A stretch of 64,000 nt of DNA, from the sequence record OP795442; one strand, written 5' to 3'. Position numbers and translations under genes: made by a program. Below are positions 60,797-64,000 of this stretch, piece after piece. The DNA comes from Escherichia phage A7_1. Under the pieces are notes generated by a model that did no database searches, was not told where the DNA came from, and saw only the letters and a list, made by a program, of their open reading frames with translations. The stretch's first letter is position 1; every line of letters starts with the position of its first letter.

Positions 60797-61009
60797 TTGA
60801 AGATTGGTTCTACGGCGGGATCTCTGGATGCTTTGAAGATGAACACCCAGACTTCTAATTATTTTCCTCTGGAGGATAATCCTCGTAATCATGATTGTAA
60901 AGATTATGATTGTCTATGTTATTGCTGCGGTCATCGATTTGCAGGGCCAAAGAGAAGCATAATGTGTAATCTTTGTCTTAACAAGAAGAAACCTGTTGAC
61001 AATAGCTGA
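60797..61009 (+). CDS. hypothetical Cys-rich protein (70 aa)
   Basis: CKDYDCLCYCCGH...CNLC. Confidence 0.4.
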   Translation: MKIGSTAGSLDALKMNTQTSNYFPLEDNPRNHDCKDYDCLCYCCGHRFAGPKRSIMCNLCLNKKKPVDNS

Positions 61010-61320
61010 TTAAATATGTAAGATTATTTTGTTGCCTGAGAGATTAGTCATCTTGAAGGCTGGGTGGGCAAATATAAGTTGGAACCATTATACCACCGAC
61101 GCGATTTACGCTTTTGGTTGACTGTGACTAAATGGGATGCCCAGTCCATCCTTCTTTAAAACGGGGAGCCGTCGAAGATTGTCTGATTAGTGATTTACGG
61201 ATCACTATAGTTTTACTACCACGACAATCTTTTACGGTGTACCCCTTGTCATGATGACGAGGTTTAAGGTTATCCTGTCGTTAAATATCCAAAACCTGTT
61301 ACCACCCACAAGAGAATTTA

Positions 61321-61403
61321 GCGCGGGTGTATCTCAACGGTCTTCTAAACCGTCGTTAATCGAGTAATTGGAGTATGAAGGTTCGAGTCCTTTCTCCCGC
61401 GCT
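61321..61403 (+). ncRNA. tRNA-like element, cloverleaf unresolved
   Basis: Perfect GGTTCGAGTCC T-arm and GCGCGGG/CCCGCGC ends but no consistent D or anticodon arm. Confidence 0.25.
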
Positions 61404-61420
61404 AAGTTCTTTTGAATATA

Positions 61421-61492
61421 GGCCCTGTAGCTGGACGGTTCAAGCAAGCGACTCATAATCGCCAGACGGTGGTTCGATTCCACCCAGGGCCA
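61421..61492 (+). tRNA. tRNA with CAU anticodon (Met, or Ile2-type)
   Basis: 7-bp acceptor GGCCCTG/CAGGGCC, loop CTCATAA, T-arm GGTGGTTCGATTCCACC, encoded CCA. Confidence 0.8.
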
Positions 61493-61628
61493 CCATATGA
61501 AGTCGGGTCGCTCCCGATAAGTCGTCGGACTGATGTTCCCTGACTACGAGTTCCCTCAACGATAACGACGTAGATCACAGCAGAAACGGCGCACCCTATT
61601 TCATTTCTTAATACATTTCAATAAGTTC

Positions 61629-61657
61629 TTGACATAATCCTATTATACTGCTAATAT
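61629..61657 (+). promoter_or_regulatory. sigma70-like promoter (TTGACA 61629-61634, TAATAT 61652-61657)
   Basis: 17-nt spacer. Confidence 0.55.
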
Positions 61658-61678
61658 AGTTATATCGACTGAATTGAG

Positions 61679-62059
61679 GTGTTTATGGCTAAAGCTGAAA
61701 TCGTTACTCGAAAACGCGGTCGGCCTACTACAGAGGAAAGCATTGCAATCAATACTGAGAGAGCAATTCTTCATGCTCGTTCCGAGTTTGCAAGACTTAC
61801 TCCTCAAGCAATTAAAACTCTGGAAGGTCTACTGACTTCCGGTACAGAGAAAGTTAAAGAAACTACTGCGAAGTATATTCTTGAGCAAGCTGAAAAGGCA
61901 AACAATCTGTACACGATGGAAGATAATGAAGAGGATCTGGCAGGAGGAACTACTTCTGCAAATTCAGAAACTCATCAAGGCCCTTCTGATGCATTTAAAG
62001 ATGCTATTCCATTAACTACTCAGATTCGTGAGTATAAAATGGCAGAAGGTGAAGATTAA
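61679..62059 (+). CDS. hypothetical protein (126 aa) with N-terminal RKRGRP basic motif
   Basis: ORF with RBS GAGGTG. Confidence 0.5.
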   Translation: MFMAKAEIVTRKRGRPTTEESIAINTERAILHARSEFARLTPQAIKTLEGLLTSGTEKVKETTAKYILEQAEKANNLYTMEDNEEDLAGGTTSANSETHQGPSDAFKDAIPLTTQIREYKMAEGED

Positions 62060-62297
62060 GGCTCGCAAGGGCCTTTACTAAGAAGTTCTCTTTAAGGTAG
62101 TTGCTTGGTGTAATTTTTCGGCAGATGGCTGCAACCATCCTATCGATAACTTATAGTTAGTGCTGCAAACACTGGCTACCTTAAAGAGAATTTAACTCGT
62201 CGAATAAGGAAGATGCTGATCTCAAAGTGAGGTCACTTACCGCAAGGGGTGTGCATAGACTCCCGCTTCCGAATAGACTATGTGGCGAGATGTATTT

Positions 62298-62376
62298 GGG
62301 GACGTGGCAGAGCGGTCGAATGCGCCTGACTGTAAATTAGGTATCCCACACGGTGGTTCGAATCCATCCGGCCCCA
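62298..62376 (+). tRNA. tRNA-Tyr (GUA), class II
   Basis: Loop CTGTAAA, D-loop GAGCGG-type, T-arm GGTGGTTCGAATCCATC, encoded CCA; one A-G mismatch in acceptor stem. Confidence 0.65.
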
Positions 62377-62382
62377 CCAAAT

Positions 62383-62455
62383 TTTCCGTTAGGCTTACAG
62401 GATAAGATTCCCACAACGTATCGTTGTGATACTGGTTCGAATCCAGTACGGAAAC
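62383..62455 (+). ncRNA. tRNA-like element with non-canonical anticodon arm
   Basis: Perfect acceptor and T-arm, but central 7-bp hairpin CACAACG-TAT-CGTTGTG replaces a canonical anticodon loop. Confidence 0.3.
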
Positions 62456-62582
62456 CAAATTAAGCCGTGATGTGATGTAATCACTGACCTCTTTGAAGGA
62501 TCATGGCATTTTATACAAAAACCTGAATAATTTAGGTTTTAATTCCTGGGGTTCGTAGCCCTATTACTAAGAGGACTTAACT

Positions 62583-62792
62583 ATGTTTACTATTAAAATT
62601 ATTGATATCGATGGAAATGAGACTGGTGTTTCAACAAGGCACTATAGATGGTACTCAAAAATGAATATTTTTGATCTGGATGGTGGTGAATCTGTTTCTG
62701 TACCACCAAAAAGTCGTGCTTATGTAATGAATGACAAAGGAATAACCATCGGTAGATACACAAATACAGCGGATCAACGCGTTCTTAATTAA
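62583..62792 (+). CDS. hypothetical protein (69 aa)
   Basis: ORF with RBS AAGAGGA; ends 1 nt before tRNA-Gly. Confidence 0.45.
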   Translation: MFTIKIIDIDGNETGVSTRHYRWYSKMNIFDLDGGESVSVPPKSRAYVMNDKGITIGRYTNTADQRVLN

Positions 62793-62793
62793 A

Positions 62794-62865
<72 letters not shown>

Positions 62866-62967
62866 CCAAACCTCTATCCATCTGACGCGTTTATGGGGTT
62901 GACCTGATCACTCTTCTCCTAATCTCGTGTGAAGACACCATGATTGTTGGGATGGATAAACTTCTTT

Positions 62968-63039
62968 TGGGGATTAGCCAAGCGGTAAGGCATCGGATTT
63001 TGATTCCGACATTCACTGGTTCGATTCCAGTATCCCCAG
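62968..63039 (+). tRNA. tRNA-Gln (UUG)
   Basis: Perfect stems; loop TTTTGAT; U1-A72 start as in E. coli tRNA-Gln (from memory); encoded CCA. Confidence 0.9.
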
Positions 63040-63047
63040 CCAATTAA

Positions 63048-63121
<74 letters not shown>

Positions 63122-63170
63122 CCAATTTACCCTCATATAATAACAATAATATAATCTCCTCTCCTTCGCC

Positions 63171-63200
63171 TCAGCCTCCCTCATTTGGGAGGCTTTTTTA
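63171..63200 (+). terminator. intrinsic terminator after the tRNA cluster
   Basis: Hairpin AGCCTCCC-TCATTT-GGGAGGCT then TTTTTTA. Confidence 0.7.
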
Positions 63201-63241
63201 TTTGTGCTTTCGGTGATAAAATATCCAAAAGGAGGATTTAT

Positions 63242-63601
63242 ATGTTACCCGCTAAAAAATATTTCATTTACGCAATGTTCGGCGTTGCGTTATTTACGTC
63301 TGGAAAACTGTATCTCGGACACGTAGAGTCTGTTGGATATGACAAAGGCTACGATGCTGCAAACACGGCTTGGATAAAGAAAGCTACTGAGTACAAAGGA
63401 AAGCTTGACTCTACATTGGAAGAGAATAAGAGGTTGAATGAAGAACTTTCTTATGCAAATGCAAAACGGATCATCGCTGAGGAAAAATTACGTGATGAAG
63501 TAGAGGCAATGAGAATCGACTATGCAAAATCTAAAAAGGGACAAGAAATATTTATGGATGATGAGATAGTTGATATCTATAACAAATCACTGGGGGAATA
63601 A
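63242..63601 (+). CDS. i-spanin-like protein (N-terminal TM helix, coiled coil)
   Basis: ATG 63242 with strong RBS AAAAGGAGG; TM segment then charged helical region. Confidence 0.4.
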   Translation: MLPAKKYFIYAMFGVALFTSGKLYLGHVESVGYDKGYDAANTAWIKKATEYKGKLDSTLEENKRLNEELSYANAKRIIAEEKLRDEVEAMRIDYAKSKKGQEIFMDDEIVDIYNKSLGE

Positions 63602-63900
63602 TGAAGAAGATTATCGCCGGAATTGTCCTTTGTTTTGGTCTTGTTGGTTGTCAGAGTAAAGAAATTTGTGGGCCTACTGAAGAAGTTAAGATAGAAAAGC
63701 TGATCGAAAAGCCGGATCTTGAACTTATGAAGAAAGAAGAACCTAAAATGACTCTGGAAAAACGCTCTGCAAAGACAACTGTTGCTGACGTTCTTAGTCA
63801 TAACAATCTTCGTGCTGCAAGAATAGAAAGACGTGCTGAAGGATTACAGACCTACGTTTGTAATATTTTTAAAGAAAATCCACCAGAGTTCTGCAAATAA
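63601..63900 (+). CDS. o-spanin-like lipoprotein
   Basis: Signal peptide with lipobox LVGC; start overlaps upstream stop. Confidence 0.45.
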   Translation: MKKIIAGIVLCFGLVGCQSKEICGPTEEVKIEKLIEKPDLELMKKEEPKMTLEKRSAKTTVADVLSHNNLRAARIERRAEGLQTYVCNIFKENPPEFCK

Positions 63901-64000
63901 TGTTGACAAGGTCAGTGCTTTTATGCATTGGCCTTTATTTTTTATCCTTTTTATGGTAATATACCTTTTATCGGTTCAAGTCAAGAACTAAAGGAGAATT

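Follow-up and report, generated by a model that had tools for sequence, protein, structure and literature searches.

Introduction

The long RNAs MALAT1 and MEN-beta carry tRNA-like 3'-end signals (mascRNA in the case of MALAT1), which are cut from the adjoining long RNA. In bacteriophage T4, the stable RNAs C and D (species 1 and 2) are small, non-decoding molecules of ~120-140 nucleotides (nt) that are encoded in the T4 tRNA cluster and are matured by the tRNA machinery. Plant mitochondria possess t-elements, tRNA-like modules whose cutting by ribonuclease P (RNase P) or RNase Z makes the end of the adjoining RNA (PMC1920247), and theta ribozymes are found within a few nt of phage tRNA 3' ends, where a function in the processing of the 3' trailer has been proposed (PMC10879173). 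Non-tRNA substrates of RNase P that mimic the acceptor/T-stack part of a tRNA are known as well, and a catalogue of tRNA-like molecules of T-even phages is cited in the same work (PMC11143913). Here we describe a 73-nt element at positions 62383-62455 (+) of a 64,000-nt stretch of DNA (hereafter the window) from Escherichia phage A7_1 (sequence record OP795442). It is very probably a transcribed, tRNA-derived, non-decoding RNA gene of an unannotated family that occurs in tRNA arrays of four clades of enterobacterial phages, i.e., the A73 group, Phapecoctavirus, phiEB49 and SABI/SonariX.

By analogy, the element appears to work most like a signal of the t-element/mascRNA type. Common to both are a tRNA-derived, cloverleaf-like form with intact acceptor stem and T-arm (GGTTCRANYCC), a non-canonical and non-decoding remainder, a location at the border of another functional RNA, and a small tRNA-like by-product (cleavage and by-product are proposed for the element). 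However, t-elements and mascRNA come from organelles or eukaryotes, where they adjoin mRNAs or long non-coding RNAs, whereas the element belongs to a virulent coliphage and flanks a tRNA, lying between two tRNAs in one clade; there is no sequence homology. Theta ribozymes resemble it as cis-acting structured RNA cassettes at the same position relative to a phage tRNA. Nevertheless, they are self-cleaving double pseudoknots from gut phages of Bacteroidota and Bacillota and adjoin tRNAs mostly lacking CCA, whereas the element is tRNA-shaped, would need the host RNase P and follows CCA-encoding tRNAs. RNAs C and D of T4 are likewise small non-decoding RNAs inside a phage tRNA cluster; the element is shorter, and BLAST of the element gave no T-even match beyond ordinary T-arm similarity. 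Transfer-messenger RNA (tmRNA) also combines an acceptor stem and a T-arm with the lack of an anticodon, but it has the alanine identity pair G3-U70, a tag reading frame and pseudoknots. In the element, pair 3:70 is U-A or C-G and the length is 73 nt; an ARAGORN search for tmRNA found none, and this candidate was rejected. With canonical phage tRNAs (RF00005) the element shares location in the array, strand, spacing, the acceptor stem of 7 base pairs (bp), the 5-bp T-stem with a UUCGAAU loop, U8, and G18 G19. It differs from them in having neither a 7-nt loop with U33 and R37 nor N73-CCA, and in its 2-nt variable region and atypical D-arm.

Phage tRNA arrays are usually taken as lists of decoders, which correct codon usage or replace tRNAs destroyed by defence systems. 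In about 80 sequenced coliphage genomes, one tRNA-sized slot of the array holds a conserved non-decoding gene that is reported neither by tRNA finders nor by annotation.

Results and Discussion

Anatomy of the element

The full layout of the element is TTTCCGT TA GG-CTTA-CAGGA-TAAG-ATTCC CACAACG-TAT-CGTTGTG AT ACTGG-TTCGAAT-CCAGT ACGGAAA C, with the following parts:

62383-62455 (+): tRNA-like element, 73 nt, read directly from the sequence
62383-62389 (+): 5' strand of the acceptor stem, TTTCCGT, positions 1-7; pairs with 62448-62454, and pairs 1, 2, 3 and 7 covary
62390-62391 (+): linker of U8 and A9, invariant across the family alignment
62392-62411 (+): D-like arm, consisting of G10 G11, CUUA-CAGGA-UAAG with G18 G19, and A25 U26 U27 C28 C29; the inner hairpin is invariant and predicted by RNAalifold
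62412-62428 (+): central hairpin CACAACG-TAT-CGTTGTG, 7 bp with a 3-nt loop, from sequence and single-sequence fold
62429-62430 (+): variable region AU, 2 nt; AU in all clades, AC in some Phapecoctavirus genomes
62431-62447 (+): T-arm ACTGG-TTCGAAT-CCAGT with canonical T-loop, from sequence and fold; pairs 49:65 and 51:63 covary
62448-62454 (+): 3' strand of the acceptor stem, ACGGAAA, positions 66-72, from sequence, fold and covariation
62455-62457 (+): C at the discriminator position, then CA, i.e., not the canonical N73-CCA

An earlier description of this locus, made from the letters alone (the original prediction), had claimed a perfect 7-bp acceptor stem (TTTCCGT/ACGGAAA), a perfect T-arm and a central stem-loop of 7 bp and 3 nt. 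All three are confirmed by direct reading and by folding of the single sequence, being present in both the minimum-free-energy and the centroid fold. The fold is unusually stable (z = -3.3), and none of 200 dinucleotide shuffles was as stable. The further claim that there is no regular D-arm was half right. The arm is indeed atypical, with a loop of 5 nt and 3-4 extra nt after it, and the variable region has 2 nt instead of the canonical at least 4 nt, but a D-like hairpin (CUUA-CAGGA-UAAG, with GG at 18/19) does exist, as do U8 and A9. Its outer stem pairs, G10-C29 and G11-C28, are tentative, with one covariation event and no counterpart in the RNAalifold prediction. With 17 nt, the central hairpin is as long as a standard anticodon arm; no meaningful second copy of it, as a repeated DNA site, was found within the window.

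Family and distribution

The window region shares 96-98% identity with Escherichia phages A73, W70, A5-4, vB_EcoM-LTH01 and UPEC06. These A73-group relatives are ~140-kb myoviruses filed under Vequintavirinae, and in none of their records is the element annotated. A BLAST search with the element alone gave full-length matches in three groups beyond the A73 group. In Phapecoctavirus (Stephanstirmvirinae; roughly 70 genomes, ~84% identity), tRNA-Ile(GAT) and a 79-nt Met-like tRNA enclose an unannotated slot of 78 nt, which the copy fills. The 47-kb siphovirus phiEB49 has a more distant relative, annotated as tRNA-Val, and in the Enterobacter phages SonariX and SABI an unannotated one directly follows tRNA-Gln. 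When IMG/VR, GTDB genomes and metagenomes were scanned for sequence patterns, further copies came only from these same four clades, and no match was obtained in 5,426 E. coli genomes searched for host or prophage copies.

A covariance model (R1) was built from 15 distinct family sequences. Members score 79-93 bits with it, ordinary tRNAs at most 36 bits, and the best non-members (bacterial tRNAs) 48 bits. The window contains one copy, at 91.9 bits, while its real tRNAs reach at most 30.6 bits. The remaining matches of the pattern scans were chance 14-mers, ordinary tRNAs of candidate phyla radiation (CPR) bacteria and an intron-containing tRNA-Thr, all of them at or below 48 bits with R1, and were rejected. 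The Rfam tRNA model, in turn, gives 33.3 bits for the SonariX copy (just over its threshold), 24.6 bits for the phiEB49 copy and no score for the window copy, compared with 55-66 bits for real tRNAs. The element thus belongs to a small, previously unannotated family in phage tRNA arrays, which no database record annotates correctly. In the literature searched, neither a prior description of such an RNA for these phages nor a transcriptome of them was found. As a working covariance model of the family, R1 can be used in annotation pipelines.

Note that a spurious antisense open reading frame (ORF) runs across tRNA-Tyr and the element at 62237-62458 (-) of the window. UPEC06 (QUL77260.1; locus L004, 1521-1667 (-)) and WPEC phages annotate an antisense 'hypothetical protein' over the element.

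Conservation, covariation and variation of the central arm

The residues that are invariant or nearly so in all clades are U8, A9 and G10, the CUUA-N5-UAAG hairpin with its GG and the following A25, C4 C5 G6 paired with C67 G68 G69, the AU variable region, and the T-arm with its UUCGAAU loop. In the family alignment, standard pairs fill 96.5% of the pair cells, compared with 35-44% in controls with slid partners, and compensatory double changes are found at 9 of the 23 pairs. These are acceptor pairs 1, 2, 3 and 7, T-stem pairs 49:65 and 51:63, two pairs of the hairpin and, tentatively, 11:28 (G-C replaced by A-U in Phapecoctavirus). From the alignment alone, RNAalifold predicts the same four-arm cloverleaf without the outer D-stem pairs.

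In the central arm, a stem is retained across the clades and the remainder varies, with loops of 3, 4, 5, 7 or 9 nt:

Window: 7 bp, loop UAU
A73: 6 bp, 5-nt loop
UPEC06/LTH01: 7 bp, loop UCU
Phapecoctavirus: 5 bp, loop CUUA, UUUA, CUA or UUU
phiEB49: 5 bp with one mismatch, loop UUAACAA
SonariX/SABI: 5 bp, 9-nt loop AACUUAAGA

Decoding capacity

With default settings, ARAGORN called the five neighbouring tRNAs and did not call the element, and the Rfam tRNA model (RF00005, gathering threshold 29 bits) did not match it even at E<=10 in a search of 61000-64000 (3 kb). At a threshold lowered to 80%, the sole ARAGORN call for the element was a 'tRNA-?' whose anticodon has 4 bases and whose stem contains two mismatches. 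The original prediction had allowed that a tRNA finder might return a canonical cloverleaf with a standard anticodon that had been overlooked by eye. No such call came from either scan, and this candidate is ruled out. No other known RNA family in Rfam matches the element at E<=10 either, nor did self-cleaving ribozyme families (theta/HDV-like, hammerhead, twister and others) match anywhere in 61000-64000 at this cutoff.

Two features of a canonical tRNA are present, the 7-bp acceptor stem and the 5-bp T-stem with a 7-nt T-loop, and covariation backs both helices. The window copy lacks a 5-bp stem closing an anticodon loop of 7 nt in which position 33 is U and position 37 a purine. If the hairpin is opened to 5 bp, the resulting loop is C-G-UAU-C-G, i.e., it has G33 and C37, and in both the minimum-free-energy and the centroid fold this loop is closed by C32-G38 and G33-C37. 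The 3' end is non-canonical as well. N73-CCA is encoded by all 27 ARAGORN-called tRNAs of these arrays, and among copies of the element only by those of phiEB49 and SonariX/SABI; the window copy ends in ACGGAAA-C-CAA and Phapecoctavirus copies in A-CCT, A-CCC or A-CAT. The unusable anticodon loop and the lost canonical 3' end go together, since the same two clades (the window group and Phapecoctavirus) show both. Judging from its sequence, the window element cannot decode.

That the element is nevertheless an unusual working decoder, whose 7-bp stem breathes to a 5-bp stem with a 7-nt loop so that it serves as tRNA-Ile(UAU) for AUA, a rare codon in E. coli, seems extremely improbable. It is true that the arm has exactly the standard length, that its central triplet UAU would pair with AUA, and that ARAGORN finds no other tRNA-Ile in the A73 group. 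However, positions 33 and 37 are G and C, where U and a purine are near-universal, the pairs closing the loop are present in both folds, and the triplet is UCU instead of UAU in UPEC06 and LTH01, i.e., it differs between phages that are otherwise ~97% identical. Furthermore, the central arms of Phapecoctavirus, with 13-14 nt, are too short for a 5-bp stem and a 7-nt loop, the variable region has just 2 nt, N73-CCA is missing, and neither Rfam nor ARAGORN calls a tRNA here.

A putative RNase P-recognised processing module

RNase P recognises its substrates by the 12-bp (7+5 bp) stack of acceptor stem and T-arm and by the elbow formed by D-loop and T-loop. In the element, this stack and this elbow have been kept within a tRNA-like fold that is otherwise non-canonical, and conservation centres on precisely these features; the anticodon arm is reduced to a short, freely varying hairpin, and the encoded CCA has been lost. 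As the conserved parts (the 7+5 bp stack, G18 G19, UUCGAAU, and U at -1 in three clades) match the needs of RNase P and the non-conserved parts (the anticodon loop and the CCA end) are those needed for decoding and charging, the element is quite possibly an RNase P-recognised processing module beside tRNAs. A processing signal was one of the options in the original prediction, and it is the one that best fits anatomy and position, although it would be redundant in Phapecoctavirus (see below). The structure and the family are solid and the concept has precedents, while transcription, cleavage, benefit to the phage and hence the function are what we infer.

In the window, the order of the cluster is tRNA-Met, ORF, tRNA-Tyr, element, ORF, tRNA-Gly, tRNA-Gln, tRNA-Pro. 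The immediate surroundings of the element are:

62298-62379 (+): tRNA-Tyr(GTA) with encoded ACCA (ARAGORN; 54.8 bits with the Rfam tRNA model)
62380-62382 (+): spacer AAT, 3 nt, with U at -1 of the presumed RNase P site (from sequence)
62583-62794 (+): 69-amino-acid ORF, phrog_3909, function unassigned; its stop codon ends 1 nt before the first base of tRNA-Gly

In all four clades, the element starts 1-3 nt past the CCA of the preceding tRNA, which is tRNA-Tyr, tRNA-Ile, tRNA-Arg or tRNA-Gln; in the window, it ends 128 nt upstream of a real ORF. The tRNAs of the window are interleaved with real ORFs (phrog_3330, phrog_3909), spanin genes come after them, and the lone terminator-like hairpin of the cluster follows tRNA-Pro. 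Interleaved ORFs, tight spacing and a single terminator suggest a mixed tRNA/mRNA transcript that needs cutting, co-transcription being presumed. With the stop codon of the 69-amino-acid ORF 1 nt from tRNA-Gly, the RNase P cut of this tRNA would set the 3' end of the respective mRNA. No neighbouring protein is common to the clades, and the sole cross-clade ORF similarity is the spurious antisense ORF over the element; the conserved entity is therefore the RNA.

According to the proposed mechanism, the element would be co-transcribed with tRNA-Tyr and the downstream ORF, its RNA would fold to a tRNA-like L-shape, and the host RNase P would cut at its 5' end, between 62382 and 62383. This cut would leave tRNA-Tyr as CCA plus 3 nt and detach the downstream mRNA, and a stable ~73-nt RNA would be freed as a by-product. 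If this is true, the host RNase P serves as punctuation of mixed tRNA/mRNA transcripts in virulent phages, and the element parallels, in a bacterial virus, the t-elements of organelles and the theta ribozymes.

Two further similarities were noted around the element. Upstream of tRNA-Tyr, the non-coding sequence at 62083-62193 (+) of the window is 79-80% identical to unannotated regions of the T5-like phages HildyBeyeler, vB_EcoS_HZ_ZJUN2 and Salmonella phage Tennessee. Directly after the element, UPEC06 and LTH01 have a T-arm-like remnant, GGAG-TTCGACT-CTTC, in a weak acceptor-like helix (UPEC06 locus L004, 1582-1675); the window sequence differs from theirs at this position.

A natural cassette swap in phage A5-4

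The most informative comparison is that with A5-4. Its flanks are identical to those of the window; between them, an unrelated sequence of ~125 nt stands in for the element, the exchange falling precisely at the element's boundaries. We designated this insert module X. It has paralogues immediately 3' of tRNA-Met in the window and, in some Phapecoctaviruses, on the 3' side of a tRNA-like relic:

Window, 61496 to about 61605 (+): module X
A5-4 (locus L160), about 1390-1515: module X
phiWec188 (locus L007), about 205-330: module X

Module X is conserved, non-coding, about 110-125 nt long and always located directly 3' of a tRNA or tRNA-like gene. It contains a covarying hairpin (CGGG-TCGCT-CCCG, CAGG-TCGCTA-CCTG or CAGGG-TCGCT-CCCTG), followed by the motif AAGTCGTC[GC][GA]ACTGA, and a long-range helix. 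Double changes affect 10 of 24 predicted pairs in four sequences, and module X appears to be structured. It has no match in Rfam. A known ribozyme was considered and rejected for it, with no Rfam match and with CUGA..GAAA motifs that are not conserved as they are in hammerheads. Different structured RNA cassettes can thus occupy the position immediately 3' of tRNA-Tyr, which speaks for a processing module, and the natural swap in A5-4 provides a ready comparison.

Processing, decay or mimicry

Several observations weigh against a processing role of the element. The main objection comes from Phapecoctavirus, in which the element lies between two tRNA genes. Both neighbours being RNase P substrates themselves, processing at the element would be redundant there, and its core is conserved anyway. 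This combination of redundancy and constraint leaves room for a trans-acting role of the freed RNA. Moreover, A5-4 is viable without the tRNA-like element. In some Phapecoctavirus copies (those ending in A-CAT), the CC at 74/75, a known contact with the E. coli RNase P, has been lost. The covariation rests on four independent clades only. The arrays hold other, more degenerate tRNA-like relics, so that gene decay is part of the picture.

Decay in its pure form would make the element a non-functional relic, i.e., a tRNA pseudogene minus anticodon loop and CCA that persists through young lineages and cassette shuffling between phages. The compensatory changes would then date from the period of a working tRNA, and they could indeed predate the loss of the loop. 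We consider this unlikely, even though several other degenerate tRNA-like sequences are found in the same arrays (61323-61401 of the window, the Asn-Thr gap of phAPEC8, the Arg(CCT)-like sequence of SABI and tRNA-Pseudo-CAT; see below), the element was lost or replaced in A5-4, and the phiEB49 relative, with its canonical-looking 7-nt loop and ACCA, may represent the working ancestor type. Phapecoctavirus genomes are also 96-100% identical in this region, hence there was little time for decay. Nevertheless, the variable sites of 12 Phapecoctavirus loci are depleted in the tRNA body, with 1 of 50 sites in the core (acceptor stem, D hairpin and T-arm) and 8 of 24 outside it (linker, hairpin, variable region, position 72 and 3' trailer; Fisher p = 3e-4), although the genomes are closely related, the sample is small, and the split into core and non-core was defined after the data had been seen, which also counts against the processing role. 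Variation in the body is as low as in the adjacent tRNA-Ile, a real tRNA (1 of 74 sites variable). The window copy differs from the Phapecoctavirus copies, which also lack the loop, at 9 of 66 alignable positions; six of these differences make up three compensated pairs, and one breaks a pair (P = 1.6e-4 for at least three compensated pairs under random substitution). Furthermore, the element is kept in all 71 Phapecoctavirus-type records with the flanking tRNA-Ile and tRNA-Met, and no deletion variants occur among them. Simple decay is thus not supported, with a body that is kept by compensation across four clades and has few variable sites within Phapecoctavirus. Of the degenerate tRNA suggested by the original prediction, the derivation from a tRNA and the inability to decode remain, while decay as such does not fit the compensatory changes and the depletion of variable sites in the body.

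The purifying selection on the body even where processing would be redundant could instead point to a trans-acting tRNA mimic, a ~73-nt RNA that accumulates and titrates a host factor reading the acceptor stem, T-arm and elbow rather than the anticodon. Candidates for this factor are a tRNA-targeting defence toxin or an enzyme of tRNA processing or modification, so that real tRNAs would be protected or the host disturbed. Between the A73 group and Phapecoctavirus, the element is ~84-86% identical, whereas real tRNAs with the same anticodon reach 56-71%. The central hairpin is its most variable segment, with four loop variants among the 12 Phapecoctavirus loci and three in the A73 group, which could reflect an arms race or a mere lack of constraint. 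Defences that target tRNAs, and phage tRNAs that counter them, are documented (PMC13096335). Still, the mimic is a doubtful reading. Having no anticodon loop, the element is unable to mimic what anticodon nucleases such as PrrC, RloC or PARIS attack, and the missing encoded CCA in the window and Phapecoctavirus copies speaks against a decoy for toxins that act at the 3' end, unless CCA is restored by the CCA-adding enzyme of the host. There is no partner protein gene common to the clades, A5-4 lacks the element, and the literature searched describes no such RNA. The decoy that the original prediction had proposed for tRNA-targeting nucleases or modification enzymes is accordingly disfavoured where anticodon nucleases are concerned (no loop, and a central arm that is the least conserved part), whereas a decoy for factors recognising the acceptor stem, T-arm or elbow is conceivable. 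A trans-acting role, if true, would be a new kind of RNA-based counter-defence. Its most far-reaching version would be a dedicated 'top-half' tRNA mimic that is freed by RNase P, accumulates and ties up a host immune effector directed at tRNAs, or an enzyme of tRNA processing, that reads the acceptor stem, T-arm and elbow, with the hypervariable hairpin as the trace of an arms race and, together with module X, with a whole class of anti-host RNA cassettes that can be exchanged for one another on the 3' side of phage tRNAs; this we regard as decidedly improbable.

In one of the 12 Phapecoctavirus loci, that of ESCO25 (locus L140, 399-469), the T-loop contains one additional A (ATTCGAAT), which is the lone core change among these loci and is either a sequencing error or a damaging mutation.

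Other tRNA-like sequences in these arrays

A second cryptic tRNA-like gene is present in the window at 61323-61401 (+), 19 nt upstream of tRNA-Met. It scores 33.9 bits with the Rfam tRNA model and is called by ARAGORN only at a lowered threshold, as tRNA-Arg(TCT). Its anticodon arm (ACGGT-CTTCTAA-ACCGT) is canonical, its variable arm is long, a T-arm is present, and the D-arm is cut to ~5 nt; its defect is thus the opposite of that of the element studied here.

In phAPEC8 (locus L138, 520-609), the 90-nt gap between tRNA-Asn and tRNA-Thr holds an unannotated tRNA-like relic with an acceptor stem GGACTTG/CGAGTCC and a T-arm GCAGG-TATCGAAT-CCTGC with an 8-nt loop; a long hairpin, CCAG-TC-GCC-AAGA-GGC-TT-CTGG, occupies the place where the anticodon arm is expected. 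A marginal tRNA-Arg(CCT)-like sequence ending in TCCA lies in the 90-nt gap between tRNA-Tyr and tRNA-Gln of SABI (locus L144) and SonariX (locus L131) at 1338-1427. It is unannotated, found by ARAGORN only at the 85% threshold and not reported by Rfam at E<=1.

The 'tRNA-Met' directly after the Phapecoctavirus element (1577-1655 in locus L138, with an equivalent in all loci) is 79 nt long and has its anticodon at position 37. This Met-like tRNA is also common to phi92-like Justusliebigvirus phages, in which the element and tRNA-Ile are missing at that spot. The records of phAPEC8 and Mt1B1_P17 label it tRNA-Pseudo-CAT or tRNA-OTHER.

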